A stretch of DNA of 64,000 nucleotides from Patescibacteria group bacterium (GTDB lineage: Bacteria > Patescibacteriota > Patescibacteriia > GWA2-46-9), in the NCBI GenBank assembly GCA_041660005.1, contig JBAZXG010000003.1, positions 64,835-128,834 on the forward strand. Direction: 5' to 3'. A program made the translations under genes and the position numbers. Below the pieces are notes generated by a model. The model worked only from the letters and a program-made list of their open reading frames with translations. It searched no databases and was not told the DNA's origin. Shown piece after piece: positions 3,038 to 61,485 of this stretch; positions within the stretch are counted from its first letter, which is position 1, and every line of letters starts with the position of its first letter.

Positions 3038-4855
3038 ATGGGTAAAAGAAACATTCAGAGAAATTATCAGGATTTGGAGAGAATCTATCGCTCAGAAGGT
3101 GGTGGCAAGATGGAAACGGTTTTTGAGCAGCGTACGTCACATTCCTGGAGACGCCTGACATTTTTTCTTTTTATCCTCTTGGTCGCCGCGAGCGCTGCTG
3201 CTTGGCTGGGATTTTATGCATTTAGGACTTTGCAGCAAAATAACGGGGGAGCAGTAACGTTGCAAATTATCGCTCCTACGGAAGCGTCGGTTGGTTCAGC
3301 TGTTACCTACCGTTTCCTGGTTAATAATAAAGCGTCTGATGTGGTTAATAATGTTAATCTCAGGGTCAATTATCCGAGCGGTTTCTTGTGGCACGCCTCA
3401 AGTATTACGCCCGACGGAGAAAGTAAGAATACGTGGTCACTCGCTGCCATCCAACCGGGTGAGTCCAAAGAGGTGGATGTTGACGGGACGTTACTAGGCG
3501 AGGCGGGGAGTCTCGGCACGGTCTTTGGCACATTGACCTATAAGCTAGCGAATTTTCAGTCCGAGCTGCAAACGAGCGATTCCGTTTCTACTGCTCTCAC
3601 CACTGGAAATCAAACGCTTAGCTGGGAGGGGGACGCGCAGGCGGTTCCCGGAACAGAAGTGACGTATGTTCTTCATTACGCAAACAAGAGTAACGAACCT
3701 TTGCCACCTGCGGTACTACGCATTAATAATGTTGATGGTTTTAGCGTAACAAGTACTGATCCAAAAGTTGACGCAACGAGCGACGGTGTTTCCTGGAATA
3801 TCGATGCGTTGCCCCCGGCTGCGGAAGGGAAAGTCAGTCTTATTGGAAAGTGGAATAATACAACCGTGGGTGAGCATGCGCTTACTGCAACACTTGAAGT
3901 AGCGGGAGATCAGGGGAAGACGAATGTTATCACCAGCGCAGAGTTGAAAGTAACGGCAGTTGGTGGGGAAGCCCTCCTCAGTTTGACGGTGAATGGTCAG
4001 CAGAACCAACCAGTCGCTTCTTTAGGTGATACACTTCACCTGAACTTACATTATCAAAATATATCTGATGTTTCACTCGGCAATGCTACGGTCAGTGTGT
4101 CGTTTGATTCGAGCGTCATCAATTGGCCCGAGGTCAATCTCAGCGATGGTTCTGTTGACGGTTCGTCCACTGTTTGGACGAGTAAAGACCTTCCGATATT
4201 GGCACGCATCGTTCCTGGAGGAGGCGGGGACATCAGTTGGGATATGCCTCTTAAAAATCAGGTAAGCGTAGGAACAAATTTATCACTAACGGTGACACCG
4301 ACCCTTCATTACGAAAAGCGAGACAATGACGTTAAGCCAAACGATATTGAAGGTGCACCCGTAATCATAGCCGTAAATACGGGGTTGAATCTTGATGCGA
4401 GTGCGCGTTACTTTTTGAGCGACGGCACACCGGTTGGGTCGGGGCCGCTGCCGCCCCGAGTCGGCAGTGAGACGAGTTATCAGATAACGTGGAAGTTAAG
4501 CAGTAGTGTGCATACGCTTACCTCGGTCATTGTTACGGGCAATTTACCGACGAATGTGAAGATAGGGAGCGGTAGTGCTAGTGTTGGAACGTGGCAGAAC
4601 AATAACGGACAGCCAGAGTGGCACATTACTTCACTGCCGCCAGGGTTAGAGCCCGAAGCTCATTTTACGGTTACACTTCGTCCCGTGTCAGCCGATGCAG
4701 GGAAAATTCTTATTCTGGCGGGGAAAAACGCATTGACCGCCAATGACGATGTTACAAAAGGTCAGGTTTCTATTGCGGGCAACACCGTGACTACCAATCT
4801 CGACGGAGATACGGTAGCTAGCGGCAAGGGAATTGTTGCCGCTGGTACGCCATAA
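3038..4855 (+). CDS. Membrane-anchored surface protein with DUF11/CARDB-like repeats
   Basis: 605-aa ORF with one N-terminal TM helix (LTFFLFILLVAASAAAWLGFYAF). It carries repeated beta-rich modules of the type G-x-VTY-x-n-N-x-n-V-x-V-x-x-P-x-GF. Confidence 0.5.
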   Translation: MGKRNIQRNYQDLERIYRSEGGGKMETVFEQRTSHSWRRLTFFLFILLVAASAAAWLGFYAFRTLQQNNGGAVTLQIIAPTEASVGSAVTYRFLVNNKASDVVNNVNLRVNYPSGFLWHASSITPDGESKNTWSLAAIQPGESKEVDVDGTLLGEAGSLGTVFGTLTYKLANFQSELQTSDSVSTALTTGNQTLSWEGDAQAVPGTEVTYVLHYANKSNEPLPPAVLRINNVDGFSVTSTDPKVDATSDGVSWNIDALPPAAEGKVSLIGKWNNTTVGEHALTATLEVAGDQGKTNVITSAELKVTAVGGEALLSLTVNGQQNQPVASLGDTLHLNLHYQNISDVSLGNATVSVSFDSSVINWPEVNLSDGSVDGSSTVWTSKDLPILARIVPGGGGDISWDMPLKNQVSVGTNLSLTVTPTLHYEKRDNDVKPNDIEGAPVIIAVNTGLNLDASARYFLSDGTPVGSGPLPPRVGSETSYQITWKLSSSVHTLTSVIVTGNLPTNVKIGSGSASVGTWQNNNGQPEWHITSLPPGLEPEAHFTVTLRPVSADAGKILILAGKNALTANDDVTKGQVSIAGNTVTTNLDGDTVASGKGIVAAGTP

Positions 4856-4859
4856 TACT

Positions 4860-5228
4860 ATGGTGGCATCTCGCAGCGTACCCGTTATTGCTCGCTCAGT
4901 AATCGTAGAGCTTGCTTACAGCCCTTTCTGGTGGTACACCATCGGTTTATCTTTGCAGTTCAAACGGTTAGCCAAAGCATTGCATTACGCAAACGAATCC
5001 TCTGGATTTTCCTTGTGGTTAAAGAACCTTTTTGTGCCCATGTTCGGGCAGAATGATTTTGCGGGCAGAACGATCAGTTTTTTTATGCGAGTCTTTCAGC
5101 TGTGCGTTCGCTTCGTCATATATGTTTGTTACGTGGCGTGGGCCGTTGCGTTATTTTTACTGTATATTATCGTTCCCCCTATTATTTTATGGAAGCTCGC
5201 GGAGTCAACACTGAACTTCATAGCGTAG
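4860..5228 (+). CDS. Small integral membrane protein, hypothetical
   Basis: ORF 4833..5228. The first ATG after the upstream stop (4855) is at 4860. The C-terminal half is hydrophobic, with two predicted helices. Confidence 0.4.
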   Translation: MVASRSVPVIARSVIVELAYSPFWWYTIGLSLQFKRLAKALHYANESSGFSLWLKNLFVPMFGQNDFAGRTISFFMRVFQLCVRFVIYVCYVAWAVALFLLYIIVPPIILWKLAESTLNFIA

Positions 5229-26049: not shown

Positions 26050-26113
26050 TTATGTTTAATTTATATATAAGTCCTCTTAATACAGTCTTCAAACCAAGTT
26101 TAACTTGGTACTC

Positions 26114-26171
26114 ATCTTGGCCCAGTCAAACTGGGCACACCTGCGTCAAACCAAGTTTGACTTGGTGGAGC
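26114..26171. repeat. 58-bp hairpin-rich repeat, copy A (abuts the 3' end of tRNA-Thr)
   Basis: ATCTTGGCCCAGTCAAACTGGGCACACCTGCGTCAAACCAAGTTTGACTTGGTGGAGC is identical base-for-base to 27282-27339. It contains the hairpins CCCAGT-CAA-ACTGGG and ACCAAGT-TTG-ACTTGGT. Confidence 0.95.
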
Positions 26172-26241
26172 CACCTCCCGGATTTGAACCGGGGACCTCT
26201 ACTTTACGAAAGTATTGCTCTACCAGCTGAGCTAAGGTGGC
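26166..26241 (-). tRNA. tRNA-Thr (anticodon CGU), CCA encoded
   Basis: The reverse complement folds as GCCACCT-TA-GCTC-AGCTGGTA-GAGC-A-ATACT-TTCGTAA-AGTAG-AGGTC-CCCGG-TTCAAAT-CCGGG-AGGTGGC-T-CCA. Confidence 0.92.
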
Positions 26242-27222: not shown

Positions 27223-27281
27223 ATACATAAAATATAATTACCTATCCCGTCAAACAAGACAGAATGTTTGACTTGCTAGGA

Positions 27282-27339
27282 ATCTTGGCCCAGTCAAACT
27301 GGGCACACCTGCGTCAAACCAAGTTTGACTTGGTGGAGC
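27282..27339. repeat. 58-bp hairpin-rich repeat, copy B (abuts the 3' end of tRNA-Gly)
   Basis: Identical to 26114-26171. Similarity continues in degenerate form for about 20 bp to the left (GTTTgACTTGcTA vs GTTTaACTTGgTA). Confidence 0.95.
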
Positions 27340-27407
27340 GGGATACGGGAATCGAACCCGTGCCTAAACCTTGGGAAGGTCTCGTACTGCCATTATACTA
27401 ATCCCGC
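27334..27407 (-). tRNA. tRNA-Gly (anticodon CCC), CCA encoded
   Basis: The reverse complement folds as GCGGGAT-TA-GTAT-AATGGCA-GTAC-G-AGACC-TTCCCAA-GGTTT-AGGC-ACGGG-TTCGATT-CCCGT-ATCCCGC-T-CCA. Confidence 0.9.
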
Positions 27408-27582: not shown

Positions 27583-28302
27583 ATGACAAGCGAACCAAAA
27601 AATAAACAAAAAAATCAACCCATGATAGAGCTGAAAGGCGTGAGCAAGCTCTATGGGGACAATATTACTGCATTGCAAAGTGTCAGTTTTAGTATTGTTC
27701 CTGGAGAACTCGTGTCCGTCGTCGGCAGATCTGGAGCTGGCAAGAGCACTATTGTTCGGTTATTACTTGCTGAGGAGAAGGTCTCGCGCGGCAGCATCAG
27801 CGTCGGTGGCTGGGACATAACAAATGTTTCGCGTCGCGACGTACCGCAGTTGCGTCGGCAGATTGGCACGGTTTTTCAAGACTTTAAATTGCTTCCCAAA
27901 AAAACTATTTTTGAAAATGTTGCCTTTGCGCTCGAGGTGAGTGGAGAAGCATCAAAGATTATTCGTGAAGTGGTGCCGCAAGTTTTGCAACTGGTCGGTT
28001 TAGGTAACCGCTTGCATCAATACCCGGCGCAACTTTCTGGCGGTGAACAGCAGCGTGCCAGTATTGCGCGTTCACTCATCCATCGTCCGAAGCTGTTACT
28101 TGCTGACGAACCGACAGGGAATCTTGACTCGATTAACACCGCAGAAATTATTGATCTTCTAAAAAAGATTAATGATCTTGGCACCACCGTGGTGCTGGTA
28201 ACGCACAACCGCGACGTAGTGAATACTTTGCGTAAGCGCGTTATCACGCTCGACAAGGGAACTATTATTTCAGACCAAGCTGTTGGTCGTTACGTTTTAT
28301 AA
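27583..28302 (+). CDS. ftsE: Cell division ATP-binding protein FtsE
   Basis: Walker A GRSGAGKST, ABC signature LSGGEQQR, Walker B LLLADEPTGNLD. It is followed directly by ftsX. Confidence 0.9.
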   Translation: MTSEPKNKQKNQPMIELKGVSKLYGDNITALQSVSFSIVPGELVSVVGRSGAGKSTIVRLLLAEEKVSRGSISVGGWDITNVSRRDVPQLRRQIGTVFQDFKLLPKKTIFENVAFALEVSGEASKIIREVVPQVLQLVGLGNRLHQYPAQLSGGEQQRASIARSLIHRPKLLLADEPTGNLDSINTAEIIDLLKKINDLGTTVVLVTHNRDVVNTLRKRVITLDKGTIISDQAVGRYVL

Positions 28303-28320
28303 TTGAGAATTGAGGTCATT

Positions 28321-29235
28321 ATGATTGCTGCTACACATAGAGTCCTACGTTTTGCTCTCCAGTCAATGTGGAGAAATTTATGGTTGACCATTGCCACAGG
28401 CGCCACAATTGCCCTCACGGTTTTTTCTCTGAGCAGTCTTCTGGCTATTCACGTTGGCATTGCACAAGTTGTTCGGTCGGTCGAGAGTCAGCTTGATCTT
28501 ACGTTGACACTTTACCCAACCGTCACGGAGTCACAAGCAAATACCCTCGTTGTTGCCATCAATGGACTCCCAAATGTAAAGAAAGTTACCTACGTATCTA
28601 AGGAGCAAGTGCTCGAAGAGCAAAAACAAAGTGGCGACGCCGAAGTGCTACGGTCGCTAGAAGCGATCGGGGAGAACCCTTTTGGCGCGTCACTCATTGT
28701 TGAAGCCACAGACTCGAAGGCGTATCTCGCGATCATTGACGAGCTAAAAAAAGAGCAGTACTCCGCGCTTATCGAAGGCCAAGAAAAGCACTTTGAAGAG
28801 AACAAGAATTTTTTGCAGAATTTCTCCAATTTTGCCGATAAGGTCCGCTATGCAGCACTGGCTGTAACGGCTGTATTTGCCCTTATAAGCGCCTTAATGG
28901 TGTTTAATGCCGTACGGGTAGCGATTTACACACAGAGGGAGGAAATCACGGTTATGCGCCTCGTCGGAGCGACAAGTTCATTCATTCGTGGACCATACCT
29001 CGCCGAACTATTTATTTACTCTGTTACGTCAGTCATTATTGGCGGTGCGTTATTCATGGGTCTGCTGTATGCCGGCCAACCCTATCTATCAACGTATTTT
29101 GGTCAGGAAAATGTTAACTTACTCGGATATTTCCAAGACAATGCACTCCTTATTTTTGGCGCTCAATTTGTAGGGCTAATGCTTTTGAGCATGGTCAGCG
29201 CGTCACTGGCAGTGCAGCGATATTTGAGCGTTTAG
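28321..29235 (+). CDS. ftsX: Cell division permease FtsX
   Basis: ORF 28303..29235. The ATG at 28321 is preceded by GAGG. Topology is TM1, a periplasmic loop domain, then three C-terminal TM helices, typical of FtsX. Confidence 0.85.
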   Translation: MIAATHRVLRFALQSMWRNLWLTIATGATIALTVFSLSSLLAIHVGIAQVVRSVESQLDLTLTLYPTVTESQANTLVVAINGLPNVKKVTYVSKEQVLEEQKQSGDAEVLRSLEAIGENPFGASLIVEATDSKAYLAIIDELKKEQYSALIEGQEKHFEENKNFLQNFSNFADKVRYAALAVTAVFALISALMVFNAVRVAIYTQREEITVMRLVGATSSFIRGPYLAELFIYSVTSVIIGGALFMGLLYAGQPYLSTYFGQENVNLLGYFQDNALLIFGAQFVGLMLLSMVSASLAVQRYLSV

Positions 29236-29296: not shown

Positions 29297-29370
29297 TGGG
29301 GGATCGTCTAATGGTAGGACAGCGGCCTTTGAAGCCGTGAATCATGGTTCGAATCCATGTCCCCCAGCCA
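29297..29370 (+). tRNA. tRNA-Gln (anticodon UUG), CCA encoded
   Basis: TGGGGGA-TC-GTCT-AATGGTA-GGAC-A-GCGGC-CTTTGAA-GCCGT-GAAT-CATGG-TTCGAAT-CCATG-TCCCCCA-G-CCA. The U1-A72 pair is typical of bacterial tRNA-Gln. Confidence 0.92.
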
Positions 29371-29407
29371 AAAATCCTGGGCCCCCTTTACGGGGCTGAG
29401 GATTTTT
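29371..29407 (+). terminator. Hairpin terminator immediately after tRNA-Gln
   Basis: AAAATCCT-GG-GCCCC-CTTTAC-GGGGC-TG-AGGATTTT followed by T. Confidence 0.6.
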
Positions 29408-29418
29408 GATTGTAGGAG

Positions 29419-29681
29419 TATAATGGATTCGAACTTAGCATCACCCCGTGGCGGGTTTCTCGAGGGCCGAGGGGCCCTCGAAGTGGGGGTCGGGGTGAGG
29501 CGGTATGGTTCTAGGAGCTCCGCTAGCCGGCGGGGCGACGGAATCCTGTCCCCAGGTTGGAGATTTTTTGTTTGAGAGATACAATGAATTCGAAGCGGGA
29601 AGGTGTTCCGCCAGAGGCGGACAGGATGGGAAGCGAAGCGACTGGTTCTAGGCCCGTTTAACGGGCCGGAATCCATGTCCC
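29419..29681 (+). repeat. Two tandem GC-rich structured units carrying degraded copies of the tRNA-Gln 3' end
   Basis: Unit 1 is 29419-29553 and unit 2 is 29580-29681. Each reads TAyAAT-GrATTCGAA ... stable hairpin ... TGGTTCTAGG-hairpin-CGGAATCC(A)TGTCCC. Compare tRNA-Gln CATGGTTCGAATCCATGTCCCCCA. Confidence 0.6.
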
Positions 29682-29789: not shown

Positions 29790-30515
29790 ATGTTATTCAC
29801 GAAAAAAGAAATTTTAGATGAAATAAGACGTACCGCAGAAGAAAACGGGGGTATACCCTTAGGCATGGACAGGTTCAAAAAAGAAACTGGGATAGGCCCA
29901 TTTGACGTAAGCAGATATTGGCCACGCTTTGGTGATGCGATAAGTGAAGCTGGATTGACGCGAAACGAACGATGGACACGTTATTCTGACGATCTTTTAA
30001 TAGAGAAGTCAATTGAAAAAATAAGGAAGTATGGTAGGTACCCAACCTTGAATGAATTATTTGTGGAATTTAATCAGGGTGATGATTTTCCGTTTCACAT
30101 ATTCAAAAAACGTTCTCAACCTTACATGGTAAAGAAAATACTTGAATACTGTCATAGTAGAAACGGTTATGAAGATGTCATTCAGGCTTGTGAACCTATT
30201 CTTAAAAAATTGAACAGTAAGGATGACCTATATAGTGATACCAAAAAGACCGAAAAAATTGGTGAGGTTTATCTCTTTAAATCCGGTAAATACTATAAGA
30301 TTGGAAAAACAAATGATACCGTGCGACGTGGAAAAGAACTTCGAATTCAACTGCCTGAAAATTTAAAGCTAATTCATTCAATTAAAACTGATGACACAAG
30401 TGGTATTGAAACATATTGGCACAAAAGGTTTGAGGGTAAGAGGATGAACGGTGAATGGTTTGATTTAAGTGCAGCAGATATTAAATCCTTTAAAAGCTGG
30501 AGGCGTATAGCTTAG
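29790..30515 (+). CDS. GIY-YIG superfamily (T5orf172/MUG113-type) protein with two N-terminal homing-endonuclease-associated helical repeats
   Basis: N-terminal repeats KKEILDEIRRTAEENGGIPL...RFGDAISEAGL and a second degenerate copy. The C-terminus reads GEVYLFKSGKYYKIGKTNDTVRRGKEL...YWHKRFEGKRMNGEWFDL. Confidence 0.65.
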   Translation: MLFTKKEILDEIRRTAEENGGIPLGMDRFKKETGIGPFDVSRYWPRFGDAISEAGLTRNERWTRYSDDLLIEKSIEKIRKYGRYPTLNELFVEFNQGDDFPFHIFKKRSQPYMVKKILEYCHSRNGYEDVIQACEPILKKLNSKDDLYSDTKKTEKIGEVYLFKSGKYYKIGKTNDTVRRGKELRIQLPENLKLIHSIKTDDTSGIETYWHKRFEGKRMNGEWFDLSAADIKSFKSWRRIA

Positions 30516-30594
30516 GTTCATTTATTATCTTAAGGTAGGTTTCGCATTCCGAAGAGTATTGGATTAATTGTGCGTGTTTTAATGAAATTGTTAT

Positions 30595-31140
30595 ATGGAT
30601 GAGAAAAACGAAGAAAGACTAGCTCCAGATGGTCTGCCGAAGCATTTTAAGATTGAGTGGAATGAGCCATTTTCTGTCTCCACTGGATCAACACCAGGAT
30701 CGTATTCTTCTGTTTCGATTCCAGTTGATTCCACAAAGTTGAAATCGGCAAAAATAAACACAGGTGGTAGTGGCGGTGTGATATTCGAAGATACGCCAGT
30801 ATATAAGTTTAAAACTACAAATTTAAAAATTAAAGACGGTAACTCTTGGGCCCATGTACGTACAAAAGTTGATTCAAGGGGAGATTATATTGATGTAATT
30901 TTTGGAAATTCAATAAACCCTCGACATTCACACATAGGATTTGAATTATCAGCTCCGCTTTTTTTAGAAATGCGAAACAAAGGCACTATTAATACAGAAT
31001 CTGCCGCTGAGGAAGGTGTAGGAGTGACCGCAGGTTCGCTTAGCTTAAAGGATACTCCTACAGGGAAATTAGTAAGACTCGACTTCGCATTAAATCTAAG
31101 TAGTAATGAAATAGAGATAACTGATTTTATTTTTATTTAG
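30595..31140 (+). CDS. Hypothetical protein (cassette gene B)
   Basis: 181-aa soluble, beta-rich ORF in the low-GC block. No family recognised. Confidence 0.45.
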   Translation: MDEKNEERLAPDGLPKHFKIEWNEPFSVSTGSTPGSYSSVSIPVDSTKLKSAKINTGGSGGVIFEDTPVYKFKTTNLKIKDGNSWAHVRTKVDSRGDYIDVIFGNSINPRHSHIGFELSAPLFLEMRNKGTINTESAAEEGVGVTAGSLSLKDTPTGKLVRLDFALNLSSNEIEITDFIFI

Positions 31141-31152
31141 TGTTTAAAGACA

Positions 31153-31629
31153 ATGACAAATATAGCTTGGAATTTAAGAAGCATCGTAATTTATGAAAAA
31201 ATCACTAACAAAGAATCCGGAAATTCAGGAGAACAAGAGATTGTGGATCTTGTACCGTGTCCGAATTGCGGTAAGAAGTTGATGAAACTTCCCCCGAACT
31301 ATCCTTTATATGACGTTCAATGCACGGGGTGCTCTTTTCGTGCCCAAGTAAAGACAAACCAGAGCAAACCAAAGTCCGTCGTTTTTGGTGCAGGATGGCA
31401 AATTATGAACAAGGTGTTGAAGTCTGGTTATATGACACCGCCCCTATTTCTTAATTTTAAGTGGCTAGAAAAAAGCATTCAAAGACAGGAAGTCCGTTTT
31501 TATCCGTTTGTACCTAAAAAGAATCTCTCCAACTACCGTCTTTCTAATACAGCCAGACGCGCCAACTACGAAATGTTTACTTATACAGGGATGGACAAAC
31601 TTCCATATTTTTCAGTATTTAAAAAATGA
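31153..31629 (+). CDS. Zinc-ribbon PD-(D/E)xK-like nuclease, DpnI/Dam-replacing-family-like catalytic domain only (cassette gene C)
   Basis: CPNCGKKL...YDVQCTGCSFRAQVKT...GAGWQIMNKVL...PPLFLNF...LSNTARRANY is colinear with my recollection of the DpnI N-terminal domain. There is no winged-helix C-terminal domain. Confidence 0.5.
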   Translation: MTNIAWNLRSIVIYEKITNKESGNSGEQEIVDLVPCPNCGKKLMKLPPNYPLYDVQCTGCSFRAQVKTNQSKPKSVVFGAGWQIMNKVLKSGYMTPPLFLNFKWLEKSIQRQEVRFYPFVPKKNLSNYRLSNTARRANYEMFTYTGMDKLPYFSVFKK

Positions 31630-31662
31630 TAAGGTGTTTAGAAATTATAATTAGTGAATAAT

Positions 31663-32535
31663 ATGGATCAGTCTTCCGTGTTGGCTTTAGCAAGTTTATC
31701 AAAAGATATAGCACAGCTTAATTTAGGATACTTAGGAATATCAGTAGCAATTCTTGGTGCGCTTGGTGGGGTTTTTGTTTATTTTAACTTAAATCCCTTG
31801 AAAGAAAACTTAAGCAAACAAGAAAAGAAAATCGAAGATTTAAAAGCCGAAGCACACAGCTTATTAGATGAATCAAAAGTTCAATCTGAGAAAACACTTG
31901 AAGATTTTGCAATAAGTCAGTTTGATAAAACGAGCCTACTTCTTAAACAGCAAAAAAATGAAATTGACTTAGAGACAAAAAATAAGATACAAGATTCTCA
32001 TAGTTTGTTATCGGATAAAATTGAAAATATTTCAGAAAGTAAAGACCTGAAACTTAAAGAAATTATTCTTTCGGAGTCTAATAATAATTTAGCTATCCTA
32101 GACAAAAATCTAACCCTGAAAATTAGTACGACCAAAGAGGATGTTCTTAAAGAAATTAAGTTAGTGAATGCTGGGATAAATGCAAAAATTAAGGAATTAA
32201 GTGAAAAAGTCATAGAATTGCAGGTTTATAAATACAGTAAAGAAGGACAGATGGGTGCAATAATTTATTCTATTGAGTTGCTTGAAAATGCGATAGAAGA
32301 TTATTTTAAAACGAAAAAAGAACTTGTTAATAAGTTGGAAAATTCATCTGACGACAAGACGTTTGGGTGGAAAGTTAATTATAGGTTAGAGGGTTTAATA
32401 AAGGAAATTGGTGATTCCAAATTGGAGGAGGATGAAGTCAAAAAAATTCTTATACAAATATCAAAAATTGAAAATGAAAGTGTTTTTAAGGTTTTAGCTG
32501 GAGAACTTAAGAAAAAAGTTTTGTATAAAAATTGA
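31663..32535 (+). CDS. Single-pass membrane protein with long K/E-rich coiled coil (cassette gene D)
   Basis: TM helix LGYLGISVAILGALGGVFVYF, then about 240 aa of heptad-like K/E/L-rich sequence. GTG at 31654 is an alternative start. Confidence 0.5.
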   Translation: MDQSSVLALASLSKDIAQLNLGYLGISVAILGALGGVFVYFNLNPLKENLSKQEKKIEDLKAEAHSLLDESKVQSEKTLEDFAISQFDKTSLLLKQQKNEIDLETKNKIQDSHSLLSDKIENISESKDLKLKEIILSESNNNLAILDKNLTLKISTTKEDVLKEIKLVNAGINAKIKELSEKVIELQVYKYSKEGQMGAIIYSIELLENAIEDYFKTKKELVNKLENSSDDKTFGWKVNYRLEGLIKEIGDSKLEEDEVKKILIQISKIENESVFKVLAGELKKKVLYKN

Positions 32536-32590
32536 AGTTCCATTTTATCTGCAAACATACTAACTTGTAATAGATAATTTACCAATAAAT

Positions 32591-33538
32591 ATGGAAAATA
32601 TTGCAGAAAAATTCTTCAATTCCTTTACTAAAATGGAAGATATCGAAAAATTAATTAGCGAAGGAGAAACCGAAGGCCAATATCTAGAATGTAAAAGCCC
32701 TCAGGGTCCATATTTTGACAAAGGATTGAAATCACAGCTAGCAAAAGAACTCTCTGCTTTCGCTAATGCAGGTGGTGGGGTTATTTTATTTGGTGTTTCT
32801 ACCACAAAACATAAGCATTCTGAAACAGATGTTTTGTCTCAGATTGAAGAAGTGGGAGCAGTTAAAAAATTTAGAAAAGAACTTGACGTGATCACAACAA
32901 CCTTAATTGAACCATCTATAATATCTTGTAGGTCAAAAGTTATTTTTAGAAATCCTTCTGATTCTAGGGGAGTAGTAGTAACTTTTGTTCCTCCAACTCC
33001 TGGTGATCCAATTAGAAGTAACCTTGACCGTGAGTTTTATATAAGAATTGGGGATGATTCAAGCAAAATGCCATATGAAACCGTAAAAAAAATGTTTGCT
33101 GGGACAGCAGGTCCAGAATTATCAGCGTTGTTTAATGACAGATTAGTAAAGTTAGAAGGTGATGGATCATGGAAAATTCCAATAATTTTAAGTAACGAAT
33201 CTAGTGCTGCAGCCAAAGACACAGAAGTTTCAGTCACGGTAATAAATGGTAGTGCCTGTGAAACTATTAGTGGAGAAATCTTCAAGGATCAGTCAAATGT
33301 AAACCCTGGGTCAAAAGTATTTATGACTGATATCGATAAGCCAATTTTTAGGGGAAAGAACGTTGTGGTCGGCTATATAGTTGTAAAAATGAAAAAAGCA
33401 AAGTTTTATAAAAGAAATTTAAATCTCAAAATAGATATATTTGCTAGTAATATGAGGGCTAAAACATATACGATAACAATAAAACTCGCAAAAAAGGGCT
33501 TTTCTGTAATGAAAACTAAGTCTGAATATTTATACTAG
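32591..33538 (+). CDS. AlbA_2/Schlafen-type putative nucleic-acid-binding domain protein with unknown C-terminal domain (cassette gene E)
   Basis: EGETEGQYLECKSPQ...LAKELSAFANAGGGVILFGVS matches the AlbA_2 (PF04326-like) pattern as I recall it. The C-terminal ~170 aa are unassigned. Confidence 0.55.
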   Translation: MENIAEKFFNSFTKMEDIEKLISEGETEGQYLECKSPQGPYFDKGLKSQLAKELSAFANAGGGVILFGVSTTKHKHSETDVLSQIEEVGAVKKFRKELDVITTTLIEPSIISCRSKVIFRNPSDSRGVVVTFVPPTPGDPIRSNLDREFYIRIGDDSSKMPYETVKKMFAGTAGPELSALFNDRLVKLEGDGSWKIPIILSNESSAAAKDTEVSVTVINGSACETISGEIFKDQSNVNPGSKVFMTDIDKPIFRGKNVVVGYIVVKMKKAKFYKRNLNLKIDIFASNMRAKTYTITIKLAKKGFSVMKTKSEYLY

Positions 33539-33689
33539 GATCATACTCGAGGCGCTTTCTTTTGCCGTAACAAAAGAGTCAGCAATAACATTGTAAAGTA
33601 ACGAGTCAAAAGGTTAGTGCTCGAAAACGGCAGCAAAAATTCCTCCCTCCACGGTTGGAACTTTCCCCCTCGCGAGATACAATTTAAAC

Positions 33690-33935
33690 ATGCCTAAAAC
33701 AGCCCCATCTTTCACACATAAAGTTCCAGCGGACTTCCGAAGGGCTATTGGCTCTACCCCTCGCGCGAAAGCGGTATGGGATGATATCACTCCAATAGCA
33801 CGCAATGAGTGGATTTGCTGGGTAACATCCGGCAAAAAAGCCGAGACGCGAAATATCCGGATCGCAAAAGCACTTTCAAAACTAAGTGGAGGAATGCGCA
33901 GACCTTGCTGTTGGGCCAGCTGTCCGCACCGTTGA
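33690..33935 (+). CDS. YdeI/OmpD-associated family protein (short form)
   Basis: VPADFRRAIGSTPRAKAVWDDITPIARNEWICWVTSGKKAETRNIRIAKALSKL...RRPCCWASCPH is a typical YdeI C-terminal domain. Its GC is normal, unlike its neighbours. Confidence 0.7.
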   Translation: MPKTAPSFTHKVPADFRRAIGSTPRAKAVWDDITPIARNEWICWVTSGKKAETRNIRIAKALSKLSGGMRRPCCWASCPHR

Positions 33936-33973: not shown

Positions 33974-34495
33974 ATGCAGCCCTATAGATTTAGTCCAATA
34001 GAAAATAAAGAACAGTTGTTAGAAGCTATAGAATATACGCATTTTAAATGTTTTGAGTTATGCAAAAAGAACTTTGGCAGATATCTTCCCGTTGCCGGTA
34101 ATATCGGAATATTTTCTCATTATGATGATGAGTATGAGTTTCTTACAAAGTTAAGAGAAGAACTAACTGAAAAGTCCGATAATTGGAACCATAAGTATTA
34201 CCGTCTTCTCGAGCCTATAAGAATTGCCGCAAAGGGTGATGTGCCTGATACTGTATATACTTATCTCTATATTCGTAAACCAGATAAGCATAAGGAAGTT
34301 GGCGATGTTGATTTTGTCTTGGGTCTCAATGAATTTAGTGAATTAAAAGACTCTTTACATCACAGCAAGGAAATCAAAGGTATAGAAGTATTCGACCGCG
34401 TTGACCTTGATCTAATTAAACTGTTCGACTCCGATACTGATGTCCTTTCTTTTATCGGGACGAAGAACATGACCGAAAATATACGACCATTATGA
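33974..34495 (+). CDS. Hypothetical protein
   Basis: ATG at 33974 inside ORF 33809..34495; the upstream part overlaps ydeI in another frame. Low GC. No family recognised. Confidence 0.4.
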   Translation: MQPYRFSPIENKEQLLEAIEYTHFKCFELCKKNFGRYLPVAGNIGIFSHYDDEYEFLTKLREELTEKSDNWNHKYYRLLEPIRIAAKGDVPDTVYTYLYIRKPDKHKEVGDVDFVLGLNEFSELKDSLHHSKEIKGIEVFDRVDLDLIKLFDSDTDVLSFIGTKNMTENIRPL

Positions 34496-34749
34496 CCCCA
34501 TACAAACACACGCAAATTGGATATCTGATGCTGGTTGTTACGTTTTGTGTGCTGGTGCTCTTCGCATGGGCGCAAATTACGGTTCGGCTTGAGCCGCCCT
34601 CTGCCGACTCTGGAGCAAATTTTGCCATTACTGCGATAATGGTATTAGTTCTGTTTATTGTAACCGATTTCCACCGTCAAAATAAGACCGGAATCATGTC
34701 CACGGGGGCTATGGCCTATACCGTGCTTATCCTCTTATTCTTGTGTTAG
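34492..34749 (+). pseudogene. Truncated duplicate of the 5' part of gene 36310..36774
   Basis: The first 168 nt (34492-34659) are about 89% identical to 36310-36477 by hand alignment with 18 mismatches. The reading frame then diverges and stops after 85 codons. Confidence 0.6.
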
Positions 34750-34846: not shown

Positions 34847-35494
34847 ATGGAAAAAGACTACATTTTAGACTTAATGAGATCAAAGAAGACTGTCTTTACT
34901 TTTAAAGACCTTATTTTGCTTTGGGGAGAATCTGACGTCAATTTTGTTAAGAAGAAGATTCATCGCTATGTTAAAGCTGGCAAAATGAACGCTGTACGCA
35001 GAGGCATTTACTCCAAAGATAAAAATTACGATAAATACGAGTTAGCTACAAAAATATATACTCCTTCATACGTCAGCATGGAGACGGCTTTAGGCGCGGC
35101 CGGAATTACTTTTCAGCTGTACGGGCAGATTTTTATTGCGTCATATACCACCAAAGAAATTGAGTGTGATGGGCAGAAATATTCTTATAAGAAAATAAAG
35201 GATACCATTCTCACCAATCAGGCTGGTATAGAGTCAAGAGAAAATTACAGTATCGCTTCGCGCGAAAGAGCATTTTTGGATGTTATCTATCTCAATAAGG
35301 ATTATCATTTTGATAATCTCTCGGCTTTGAATTGGGAAAAAGTATACGAAATCTTACCCATTTATCGTGGTAATAAACGTATGGCTAAGATGGTGAAAAT
35401 GTACCATAAAGCATTTTCTGCCGACTTGTCCGCCGAAGCCGCAGCGCAGGCGGGAGGAGGTCCGCCTCTAGCAGAAAGAATTCCAACTAGATAA
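34847..35494 (+). CDS. AbiEi-family type IV toxin-antitoxin antitoxin
   Basis: The N-terminal wHTH-like segment (FTFKDLILLWGESDVNFVKKKIHRYVKAGKMNAVRRGIYS) and its position directly upstream of an AbiEii gene support the call. Confidence 0.75.
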   Translation: MEKDYILDLMRSKKTVFTFKDLILLWGESDVNFVKKKIHRYVKAGKMNAVRRGIYSKDKNYDKYELATKIYTPSYVSMETALGAAGITFQLYGQIFIASYTTKEIECDGQKYSYKKIKDTILTNQAGIESRENYSIASRERAFLDVIYLNKDYHFDNLSALNWEKVYEILPIYRGNKRMAKMVKMYHKAFSADLSAEAAAQAGGGPPLAERIPTR

Positions 35495-35501
35495 TAATCA
35501 T

Positions 35502-36206
35502 ATGGCTCTTGATACCGCAAAGCATAAAAATGTTCTCATAAAAATCCTCAAGGATATCTATACTGACGCAACCATTAGTCCGATCTTAGGATTTAAGGGT
35601 GGGACAGCTGCTACATTTTTCTATAACCTCGACCGCTTCTCGGTGGATTTGGATTTTGATTTACTTGATTCAGACAAAGAGAACTACGTGTTTGGTCGTG
35701 TTAAAGCAATTATTGAGAATTATGGCAAATTAAAAGAGTCACGAAAGAAAAGATTCAATCTTTTTTATATTCTTTCTTATGACGACAAAGATATTAACGC
35801 CCAAAACGTCAAGGTAGAAATTAATCGCCGTGAATTCGGTTCAAAATATTCGGTGGAATCATTTCTTGGTATCTCGATGCAGGTGATGGTGAAAGAAGAT
35901 ATGGTTGCACATAAACTTTGTGCTATGTACGAACGGATTGGTAAGACGAATCGCGACATTTTTGATGTTCAGTTTTTCCTTTCGCACGACTGGCCTGTTA
36001 ATAAAAAAATTGTTGAGAATCGTACAGGTGTCTCGTATGCAGAATTTTTGAAAAAGTGTATTGATGTAATGGAAAAATTCGATGACAGCAATGTACTTTC
36101 CGGTATGGGTGAATTACTCACTGAGAAACAGAAAGCATGGGCAAAAACAAAGCTTAAGTCAGAGGCGTTGTTTTTGCTTAGGTTAGCTCTGGAGAAGGAA
36201 AAGTAA
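35502..36206 (+). CDS. AbiEii/AbiGii-family nucleotidyltransferase toxin (DUF1814)
   Basis: LGFKGGTAATFFYNLDRFSVDLDFDLLD is the characteristic GGTA...R.S.D.D motif block; 234 aa. Confidence 0.85.
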   Translation: MALDTAKHKNVLIKILKDIYTDATISPILGFKGGTAATFFYNLDRFSVDLDFDLLDSDKENYVFGRVKAIIENYGKLKESRKKRFNLFYILSYDDKDINAQNVKVEINRREFGSKYSVESFLGISMQVMVKEDMVAHKLCAMYERIGKTNRDIFDVQFFLSHDWPVNKKIVENRTGVSYAEFLKKCIDVMEKFDDSNVLSGMGELLTEKQKAWAKTKLKSEALFLLRLALEKEK

Positions 36207-36309
36207 ACTTATATGCCAAATATAATCGCCGACAAAACCAAAAAACAGACTTACTATAAGTGCACTTCACTCACTATCCTCGGCAATAAGGTGATCACAG
36301 AATAGATTT

Positions 36310-36774
36310 ATGACTTCCTACAAACACACGCAAATTGGATATTTGATGCTGGTTGTCACGTTTTGTGTGCTGATGCTTTTCGCATGGGCTCAAATTACGG
36401 CCCGGCTTGAGCCACCCTCTGTCGACTCTGGAGCAAATTTTGCCGTTACGAGCATCATGGTATTAGTTCTGTTTATTCTTTCATCATTTGCGACGCTCAC
36501 AGTGTCGATTGATGAAAATTATCTTCGAGTTAAATTTGGCTATGGTATTTTCGCCAGGAAGTTTGAATTGAATCAGATAGCTTCAGTTAAAACAGTAAAG
36601 AATCACTGGTACTACGGATGGGGGATAAGGTTGTGGTTCTGGCCCAAAATGTGGATTTTTAATGTTTCCGGTTTTGATGCAGTCGAGCTCGTTATGAAAA
36701 ATGGAAAAATCTACCGCATAGGAACAGACGTTCCAGGAGAGCTTGAGACTGCGATCAAAGCGGTGTTAAAGTAA
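36310..36774 (+). CDS. Small membrane protein (two TM helices plus a soluble C-terminal domain), intact paralogue of 34492..34749
   Basis: 154-aa ORF beginning MTSYKHTQIGYLMLVVTFCVLMLFAWAQI, with a C-terminal beta-rich domain. No family recognised. Confidence 0.55.
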   Translation: MTSYKHTQIGYLMLVVTFCVLMLFAWAQITARLEPPSVDSGANFAVTSIMVLVLFILSSFATLTVSIDENYLRVKFGYGIFARKFELNQIASVKTVKNHWYYGWGIRLWFWPKMWIFNVSGFDAVELVMKNGKIYRIGTDVPGELETAIKAVLK

Positions 36775-60393: not shown

Positions 60394-61485
60394 CTATCTT
60401 GTGGTGTGTAACTCGCCGGCGAATGTTCCCCGGAATTCGACTTGCGGCTCGTCTCCGCGGCGGTTCACCACTTGGCCTATCTGGATGGCAGACTCCCCGA
60501 CCGGTCGCAGGCGCGGTGAACAACGCAGCTCGCCGTTTTCGACCACGCTAACCATCTGGATACCTTGATTGAAGACGTGATCCATTTCATCAGGATCGAT
60601 CTGGCCGACGAATTGAGCCATCCGCAGTATCGGCGGCCGATCCCAGGCATCGCGATTCAGTACGACCTTGAGCGTCGACGGGAGAATGCGCGGGATGTTC
60701 TCGACGAGACCGCCGCCCGTGATGTGAGCATGAGCCGCAAAAACGGTACCCAGCTTACGCTCAGCCTCGCAGGCGTCGATGTACATCTGCGTCGGTACCA
60801 TCAGCGCGTCAGCGAGAGTGTCGTCGAGATCTGACCAGTACTTTGCAAGTCGGCGCAGAACAGTTCTCGGACCGGCATTCAGCCCGAAGACTCGCCGCAG
60901 TAGCGAATAGCCATTCGCTCCCGGTCCCTTCGAGGGCCAACCGTAGACACATTGTCCAGCTTTGACCGCTCCGGTAATCGTTCCGGCAGAAAAGCCGATG
61001 CCGAAAGCAGCGATGTCGAAACCGTTTGCTCTCCGGAACATTCCCGGATGCTCAGCTGTTTCTCCACCGATCAGTCTGCACCCGGCAGCCTTGCAGGCAG
61101 CGATGACGCCGTCGATCACCTCGATGTGGTCTTCTGGCACGAGCTTCGCGACCGCCAGATAGTCGAGGGCAAAGGCGGGTTGGTGGCCCGCGCAGTACAG
61201 GTCGACCAGAGCCATGGCGCCAGCATCGCTCCCGACCCCCTTGTAGTAGCCGCGACCAAGCACTGCAGCGATGTCCGGCTTTGTGCCCGCGCCATCGGTT
61301 GATGCCGCTAAGCGCGCTACCCGCCGACGAGCGCTCCGAGGAATCAATCCCCCGCCAGCAAACCCGCCGATTTCATCCCCTCCGCCTGGCCAGGCCTTCT
61401 CTATTCGTGCTTTCACGAGATCCTCGAAGACACCTGCCGCAGAAAGGCTGACTCCGGCTTGTTCGTACAGTCTTGCAGTTGTCAA
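60394..61485 (-). CDS. purM: Phosphoribosylformylglycinamidine cyclo-ligase (AIR synthase, PurM), compositionally foreign
   Basis: STDGAGTK, GGETAEHPGMF and HITGGGLVENIPRILP match PurM motifs. TTG start with an AAGGAG Shine-Dalgarno 9 nt upstream. A spot count gives 39/60 GC at 60661-60720. Confidence 0.85.
   Translation of the reverse strand: MTTARLYEQAGVSLSAAGVFEDLVKARIEKAWPGGGDEIGGFAGGGLIPRSARRRVARLAASTDGAGTKPDIAAVLGRGYYKGVGSDAGAMALVDLYCAGHQPAFALDYLAVAKLVPEDHIEVIDGVIAACKAAGCRLIGGETAEHPGMFRRANGFDIAAFGIGFSAGTITGAVKAGQCVYGWPSKGPGANGYSLLRRVFGLNAGPRTVLRRLAKYWSDLDDTLADALMVPTQMYIDACEAERKLGTVFAAHAHITGGGLVENIPRILPSTLKVVLNRDAWDRPPILRMAQFVGQIDPDEMDHVFNQGIQMVSVVENGELRCSPRLRPVGESAIQIGQVVNRRGDEPQVEFRGTFAGELHTTR

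Follow-up and report, generated by a model that had tools for sequence, protein, structure and literature searches.

A compact cluster of five open reading frames (ORFs), designated here genes A to E, occupies positions 29790-33538 of a 64,000-nucleotide (nt) stretch of DNA from a Patescibacteria group bacterium (metagenome-assembled genome; GenBank assembly GCA_041660005.1, 154-kb contig JBAZXG010000003.1, positions 64,835 to 128,834 of the forward strand), which was analyzed as a whole and is referred to below as the window. An initial annotation had read this low-GC block, which lies next to a tRNA-Gln gene, as a candidate for a single undescribed five-gene defense system. Our analysis points instead, with a probability of roughly 0.7, to a mosaic located at a tRNA-Gln-linked variable hotspot and not to an operon-encoded system, with the five genes independent of one another. 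This reading is carried by a survey of gene neighborhoods in related loci and by the evolutionary history of gene C.

Gene neighborhoods and the backbone of the locus

The co-occurrence test was built on the loci of B, C, and E homologs, about 180 related loci in all. No homolog of A, B, D, or E was found near C in 80 metagenome loci plus two more contigs. Similarly, no homolog of A to D was detected near E in 79 E-related genome loci (13 with a full-length E), nor near the three closest relatives of E, which share 71%, 62%, and 63% identity with it. The six loci in which a B homolog could be placed (L082-L087) harbor no homolog of A, C, D, or E, and the neighbors found there are unrelated. 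We also found no conserved neighbor around C or around E. The initial annotation had stated that its proposal would fall if homologs of B to E never colocalize in other genomes; for B, C, and E this is what we observe, since their homologs elsewhere never lie beside other genes of the cassette, and the single-system reading thus fails on its own terms. The complete A to E arrangement is seen only on contigs L001 and L002, which derive from the same organism.

Gene C holds a conserved position in relatives that lack A and B. In locus L088, ftsE (54% identity), ftsX (31%), and tRNA-Gln are followed after 42 nt by C (92%), with neither A nor B present, and L091 retains the order ftsEX, tRNA-Gln, C, two other genes (an HNH protein and one further gene), and omdA. 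The OmdA homologs, which share 62% identity, are found ≈1.5 kilobases (kb) after C in both L090 and L091. All 11 of the closest loci have a tRNA-Gln gene upstream of C and on its strand, as do 17 of the loci that encode a C of ≥79% identity; the tRNA gene is absent from this position in more distant C loci. The distance from tRNA-Gln to C in these relatives ranges from 34 to 4180 nt. In L093, the interval is filled by genes encoding a large serine recombinase and a Rep protein. The gene that follows C is likewise variable, and is a ≈232-residue HNH protein whose ORF overlaps C by 4 nt in L088-L092 and an EcoRI-like adenine methylase with a GmrSD-HNH protein in L093.

Comparison of the window copy of C with that of ten relatives (82-92% identity) gives synonymous divergence (dS) that ranges from 1.4 to saturation and is mostly saturated, nonsynonymous divergence (dN) of 0.04-0.11, and a dN/dS ratio of about 0.03 or less. 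Saturated dS combined with low dN means that the identity of these proteins reflects an old divergence under very strong purifying selection. Recent horizontal spread was considered as a cause of this conservation and is ruled out by the saturated synonymous sites. We conclude that C is a vertically inherited resident and that it adjoined tRNA-Gln before A and B were inserted. The synteny in L088 and L091, together with the old divergence of C, thus defines a backbone of the form ftsE-ftsX-tRNA-Gln-[slot 1]-C-[slot 2]-omdA, on which the features of the window are arranged as follows.

27583-29235: ftsE and ftsX (Pfam), upstream of tRNA-Gln
29297-29370, + strand: tRNA-Gln(ttg) (ARAGORN; Rfam tRNA, 64.9 bits), anchor of the variable region
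29371-29681, + strand: GC-rich (0.54-0.70), structured spacer with an att-type repeat
29790-30515, + strand: gene A, slot 1, T5orf172/MUG113 protein
30595-31140, + strand: gene B, slot 1, 181 amino acids (aa)
31153-31629, + strand: gene C, resident anchor, DpnI catalytic domain
31654 (GTG) or 31663 (ATG, the NCBI start) to 32535, + strand: gene D, slot 2
32591-33538, + strand: gene E, slot 2, SLFN_AlbA_2 domain
33690-33935, + strand: OmdA/YdeI-domain gene (246 nt, 81 aa; Pfam OmdA, 1.8e-17), right-hand backbone marker
34847-36206, + strand: AbiEi/AbiEii type IV toxin-antitoxin (abortive infection) pair (PADLOC AbiEi, 4.8e-59, and AbiEii, 6.1e-76; Pfam AbiEii, 2.1e-15)

In the history that we propose, C would be a long-standing resident of this Patescibacteria lineage; A and B would have inserted between tRNA-Gln and C next to an att-type scar, and D and E would have inserted between C and omdA, with the AbiE pair entering slightly further on. 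Each of the five genes most likely acts alone.

Nucleotide composition follows the same division. We reproduced the layout of the block given by the initial annotation, with five co-directional + strand ORFs separated by gaps of 79, 12, 33, and 55 nt (the third of these, between C and D, counted from the D ATG at 31663), as well as its spot count of 20 GC in 60 nt at 31801-31860. The GC content of the ORFs is 0.36, 0.37, 0.39, 0.30, and 0.34 for A, B, C, D, and E, respectively, against a mean of 0.436 (standard deviation 0.048) for ORFs of the window, so that D and E have z-scores of -2.9 and -2.0, respectively. At third codon positions (GC3), values are 0.31 for A, 0.26 for B, 0.39 for C, 0.25 for D, and 0.24 for E, with host genes at about 0.40-0.45. 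By this measure, A, B, D, and E look foreign and C looks host-like; thus, the assignment of C to the cargo of a low-GC cassette does not survive, given its host-like GC3 and its syntenic position in relatives without A and B. Flanks of normal GC content had also been described. This is correct for the genes upstream of the block (0.45-0.49) and for the OmdA gene (0.51); downstream of the latter, GC drops to 0.37-0.42 for ≈8 kb, so the right flank is GC-normal only briefly. We found no terminator-like site on the + strand within A to E and, with co-directional genes and short gaps, co-transcription in this genome is therefore possible.

The initial annotation knew of no named system with this combination of genes, and we concur: scans of the five genes against four profile libraries (Pfam, PADLOC, NCBIfam, and PHROGs) return no system-level match. 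PADLOC identifies a partial mREase_II in C (9e-8) and a weak PDC-S57 in A (5e-4), and nothing in B, D, or E. The nuclease-rich content that gave the locus its defense-island flavor is real, and a named system, the AbiE pair, sits just beyond the five-gene block.

Gene C, a DpnI-related protein

The earlier reading of C as a zinc-ribbon PD-(D/E)xK-like protein resembling the DpnI catalytic domain is borne out by matches to Pfam DpnI (PF06044; 7.5e-11) and PADLOC mREase_II (9e-8), the former with 42.4 bits against a cutoff of 26.7 and spanning residues 27-151 of C on positions 25-151 of the 183-position profile; C also matches the DpnI structure 4esj in a phmmer alignment. C belongs to a family with >1353 members that share 73-93% identity across Patescibacteria classes and are 142-151 aa long. 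A literature search retrieved no paper on this family. We examined motif conservation in 207 distinct family sequences. The four cysteines of the zinc ribbon (CxxC...CxxC; C36, C39, C57, and C60) are invariant, as are D54, K67, and Glu27. The position of DpnI Glu64 is occupied by Q65, and Gln is found here in at least 201 of the 207 sequences. The DpnI triad Asp53-Glu64-x-Lys66 is therefore not fully conserved in C, which has D54 and Q65-x-K67. HinP1I may offer a parallel, with a QXK motif of its own. The residues that line the methyl-binding cleft are largely kept, with an invariant L130 and R136, and Y139 at the position of DpnI Trp138, in an L..RRANY segment present in ≈198 of 207 sequences. 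Finally, C lacks the C-terminal winged-helix domain: the protein ends at residue 158, and the whole domain is missing relative to a full-length DpnI homolog (L100).

The roles of these residues are known from DpnI itself, in which Glu64 is a metal ligand and Leu129, Arg135, and Trp138 form the methyl-binding cleft; the W138Y substitution retains partial activity, and DpnI homologs with Tyr and His at the Trp138 position are known (PMC4117772). Active PD-(D/E)XK enzymes that lack an acidic residue at the Glu64-type position exist as well, as described in the ThaI paper (PMC3025569). C thus resembles R.DpnI, a type IIM enzyme dependent on Gm6ATC (Pfam PF06044, "Dam-replacing family"; structures 4esj and 4kyw), in its fold family, in the CPNC...C..C ribbon, in the catalytic Asp and Lys and the equivalent of Asn48, and in a pocket of Leu129 and Arg135 with Tyr replacing Trp138. 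C differs from R.DpnI in the absence of the winged-helix reader (143-158 aa compared with 254 aa for DpnI), in the Gln fixed at Glu64, in a four-residue deletion that removes the Gly140 region, and in its extreme conservation across a superphylum and its synteny with tRNA-Gln.

These features suggest that C is probably a single-domain reader of adenine-methylated DNA that possibly cuts or nicks it. As a monomeric DpnI-type module, it would recognize DNA methylated on adenine, probably at Gm6ATC or a related site; the retained Leu/Arg/Tyr pocket would bind the methyl group, and the altered D...QxK site would cut or nick. Avoidance of GATC was considered as a pointer to the target, but the observed/expected ratio of GATC in the window, 0.88, is unremarkable.

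The start of C also merits description. In relatives, an ATG or TTG is followed by A7 (M-K-K-I-T-N), whereas the window has ATG then A6 (comparison of 31153-31215 of the window with L088 3795-3850 and L092 5990-6040). With A6 for A7, the ancestral ATG of C (31192) lies outside the reading frame. This frame stays open from an upstream ATG at 31153, 12 nt past the stop codon of B, which adds 15 residues ahead of a conserved core that starts near 31195. The A6 tract could be a sequencing error or a product of slippage in the homopolymer (phase variation); Logan contig L001 carries the identical sequence.

The 150 genes that flank C homologs fall into 117 Pfam families, among which type I restriction-modification (R-M) is the commonest and many are housekeeping families. 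Individual neighborhoods include a Campbellbacteria locus (L190, 5830-10422) in which the C homolog lies by a type I R-M system with a SocA/Panacea gene, and L131, where homologs of the AbiE pair are found directly upstream of C. The HNH gene of L088 is at 4239-4937.

Genes probably inserted around the resident

Gene E, in slot 2, encodes a protein of two domains. The N-terminal AlbA_2/Schlafen domain and the beta-rich C-terminal domain that had been assigned to it are both well founded: the former matches SLFN_AlbA_2 (5e-12; 46.8 bits, cutoff 25.3), and the latter, at approximately residues 175-315, is an all-beta, immunoglobulin (Ig)-like sandwich in the AlphaFold model. This AlphaFold2 model has a predicted local distance difference test (pLDDT) score of 88, and Foldseek matches it to the SLFN13 N-domain (5yd0) and to Ig-like/cohesin folds. 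The predicted catalytic segment is E28-x4-E33-C-K35, and none of 31 sequences departs from E28, E33, or K35. An E profile finds SLFN8/12/14/5/11 (1.9e-6 to 7.5e-3), with E28/E33/K35 placed on the "sE....E.K" of SLFN8/12/14. The full-length family comprises 85 proteins of ≈315 aa from Patescibacteria, Zixibacteria, Anaerolineae, Desulfomonilia, Latescibacterota, and others. The genes that adjoin E homologs encode a P-type ATPase, ribonucleotide reductase, Mfd, ThyX, a thioesterase, and similar proteins, and differ in all 13 full-length loci as well as around the three closest relatives. In L188, the E homolog, one of the three closest relatives, follows genes for DUF4145 and Mrr proteins; a DUF4145 protein is also encoded beside the C homolog of L093 (1-6900).

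In the characterized prokaryotic Schlafen CbCash, E17 and D22 are catalytic and spaced as in E, and Cash cleaves tRNA (PMC13462974). E shares its AlbA_2 domain and E-x4-E-x-K motif with prokaryotic Schlafens (CbCash, of type III CRISPR, PMC13462974; SLFN-pAgo, bioRxiv 10.64898/2026.05.29.728809) and with mammalian SLFN11/12/13/14; as in these, a nuclease domain is followed by a different C-terminal domain, and some relatives of E lie beside restriction genes. Unlike these proteins, E carries an Ig-like C-terminal domain and not Csx15/CARF, NACHT, ATPase, or Argonaute modules, and it is a solo protein with no CRISPR or other conserved partner and no PADLOC model. We favor a reading of E as a Schlafen ribonuclease (RNase) that stands alone, moves horizontally, and would use its Ig-like domain as a sensor or regulator. 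Once that domain senses a trigger, E would cleave tRNA or other RNA and, by analogy, would act like an abortive-infection effector; we infer both trigger and substrate.

Gene A is probably a selfish or phage-derived nuclease-like gene. The T5orf172/MUG113 module of the GIY-YIG superfamily that had been recognized in it is evident at its C-terminus (residues ≈160-237), with matches to MUG113 (9.5e-16; 58.6 bits, cutoff 22.3) and T5orf172 (7.6e-7; 30 bits, cutoff 20). Of the two homing-endonuclease-associated repeats also proposed, one is found below threshold as an HNH_repeat in the N-terminal helical region (4.7e-4; 20.9 bits versus a cutoff of 26), and the second is not detectable. Several PHROG families match the module, with a match of A to PHROG 8130 at 7.9e-18. 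A forms a singleton cluster at 90% identity, and only its T5orf172 part matches two viral contigs. The C-terminal module, recovered by both Pfam models and by PHROGs, is that of T5orf172/MUG113 proteins of phages and mobile elements; the N-terminus, with its single sub-threshold repeat, sets A apart from them. We would place A among selfish or phage-derived genes of the GIY-YIG family.

The 181-aa B protein was described as lacking a recognizable domain, and none of the four libraries places it in a family. It is all-beta and conserves a Y-[LI]-D-[IV]-x-F-G...H-S-H-x-G-[FY] motif (D...HxH). The family is very rare, with 12 relatives among 1.84 billion representatives, some of which harbor an N-terminal zinc ribbon, and the structural model of B (pLDDT 79.5) has no informative structural neighbor. 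In L084 (45-641), the B homolog is preceded by a gene whose 195-aa product has a transmembrane helix at its N-terminus and is otherwise helical, an architecture like that of D.

D had been described as a single transmembrane helix followed by a long coiled coil. One hydrophobic, transmembrane helix is indeed present at residues 24-42; the remainder of the protein, the putative coiled coil, is helical and rich in K, L, E, and I. D has the lowest GC content of the block. It shows no significant family match in the four libraries and forms a singleton cluster, and searches of viral contigs, plasmids, phages, the PDB, and 191 fetched loci yielded no relatives. Assignment of D as a SLATT effector was considered and rejected, as the match to NCBIfam SLATT_1, at 14.7 bits (E = 0.023), falls far short of the cutoff of 41.

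The proposed tRNA-Gln hotspot and competing explanations

The 3' end of tRNA-Gln, GAATCCATGTCCC at 29351-29363, is repeated exactly over 13 nt at 29669-29681, where 0.07 chance copies are expected. The att-like debris reported beside the tRNA is therefore real. No further copy of GAATCCATGTCCC is present downstream of E, so A to E are not bracketed by att repeats, and profile scans found no recombinase domain in A to E or in neighboring genes. As an att-type scar, this 13-nt repeat marks an earlier integration and does not delimit A to E. The spacer between tRNA-Gln and the end of the scar (29371-29681) has fold z-scores of -3.6 (+ strand) and -4.9 (- strand). It contains two related sub-units, each of which starts with TA(T/C)AATG(G/A)ATTCGAA and closes with GGAATCC(A)TGTCCC. 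The spacer is not present in any related locus; as a known RNA it was rejected, since the best Rfam match, Actinomyces-1, is sub-threshold (28.5 versus 39.1 bits) and other loci lack the spacer. A promoter-like element, GGTTGGA...GAGATACAAT, occurs within the att scar (29555-29585) and again directly upstream of the OmdA gene (33653-33683); over 31 nt the copies share 71% identity, which may reflect chance or a host promoter consensus.

Integration hotspots linked to tRNA genes, and defense islands, are established concepts, and the locus is a further example of such tRNA-linked variable hotspots. Common to both are variable genes by a tRNA, a direct repeat of the tRNA 3' end, inserts of deviant composition, an enrichment in nuclease, toxin-antitoxin, and R-M genes, and a recombinase-bearing element in the same slot of a relative (L093). 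Deviant composition and variable presence, by which islands are recognized, are both seen here, with GC3 of 0.24-0.31 in A, B, D, and E, and with A and B missing from L088. The present copy differs from typical hotspots in that it has neither an integrase nor repeats around A to E, and in that its variable region is interrupted by a conserved resident, C, which separates the two slots.

Beyond the OmdA gene, the AbiEi/AbiEii pair has on either side a copy of a 170-nt direct repeat (34490-34659 and 36308-36477; 89% identical) that corresponds to the duplicated 5' end of a membrane-protein gene, present as a truncated 85-aa copy (34492-34749) and a full 154-aa copy (36310-36774). The AbiE pair looks like an insertion with target duplication. 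Elsewhere in the window, a 93-nt repeat with hairpin-forming sequence (86% identical; 26098-26190 and 27266-27358) takes in the 3' ends of two - strand tRNA genes, tRNA-Thr and tRNA-Gly, together with ≈70 nt downstream of each. An AIR-synthase-related ORF (60394-61485, - strand) has a GC content of 0.60 compared with 0.44 for the window (z = 3.5) and may be foreign.

Several observations weigh against a mosaic of independent genes built around a methylated-DNA reader. A to E are co-directional and closely spaced, with no + strand terminator-like site inside the block; the att repeat encloses only 305 nt (29364-29668), leaving A to E outside, and the block has no integrase; the neighborhood survey covered only loci of B, C, and E homologs, and its B sample consists of short contigs; the conservation of C is unusually extreme for a restriction enzyme, and its fixed Gln could signify a loss of cleavage. 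The first of these is also what speaks for A to E, or B to E, as one undescribed multi-gene anti-phage system in which two nucleases cooperate with a Schlafen-like sensor and a coiled-coil membrane protein, as do the nuclease-rich, low-GC character of a block that adjoins an AbiE pair and the lack of a named match. We regard such a system as very improbable, because in ≈180 related loci homologs of B, C, and E are never found together or with A or D, because C is vertically inherited, host-like in GC3, and present without the others in syntenic genomes, because E stands alone beside housekeeping genes in many phyla, and because the full arrangement is confined to contigs L001 and L002 of this genome. 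Smaller, lineage-specific units are conceivable, with D (a membrane effector) and E (a Schlafen nuclease/sensor), and/or A and B, acquired pairwise into slots 2 and 1, respectively. In favor are the GC3 values of D and E, the lowest of the five, and the gap of 55 nt between these genes; the low GC3 of A and B, which sit together between the att scar and C; and the D-like architecture of the protein encoded ahead of the B homolog in L084. This last protein, however, has no detectable similarity to D (phmmer, E ≤ 10); no E homolog, including the relatives of 71%, 62%, and 63% identity, has a D-like neighbor by sequence or by architecture, no B homolog has an A-like one, and the E family is conserved at full length as a solo gene across phyla. 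Paired acquisition of this kind is therefore quite unlikely.

A further alternative concerns C alone, which might not be a defense nuclease but a catalytically altered reader of DNA containing N6-methyladenine, with a core role in Patescibacteria in, for example, replication, repair, or regulation, near which variable genes accumulate. Its identity of 73-93% across classes at saturated dS, along with a conservation that surpasses that of FtsE and FtsX in the genome pair compared, is consistent with such a role, as are the Gln fixed at the Glu64 position in a protein that keeps its DNA- and methyl-contact residues, the absence of an obligate partner (117 Pfam families among 150 neighbors, many of them housekeeping), and a tRNA-Gln synteny that is kept within a clade. 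On the other hand, Asp54, Lys67, and Glu27 are invariant, as in an active site, active PD-(D/E)XK enzymes without an acidic residue at this position exist, and in several loci C lies beside type I R-M, HNH, GmrSD, or AbiE genes. We consider a core role unlikely but credible. The more specific proposal that the C family is an undescribed, superphylum-wide, single-domain DpnI derivative, a core reader or nickase of adenine-methylated DNA that would act, for example, in the control of replication or repair and is under selection stronger than that on FtsE/FtsX and not an ordinary restriction enzyme, is a tentative one that we hold to be rather unlikely.

The mosaic reading has consequences beyond this locus. 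A tight, co-directional, low-GC cluster next to a tRNA can consist of separate insertions on either side of a resident gene, and a co-occurrence test quickly discriminates between this situation and a true multi-gene system. E represents a solo Schlafen-plus-Ig family found across many phyla and adds to the newly recognized prokaryotic Schlafen effectors. Finally, the conservation of C across Patescibacteria, far beyond that of usual restriction enzymes and combined with a fixed active-site change, is a lead: if C reads or nicks methylated DNA, it would inform the methylation biology of these unculturable bacteria of reduced genome.

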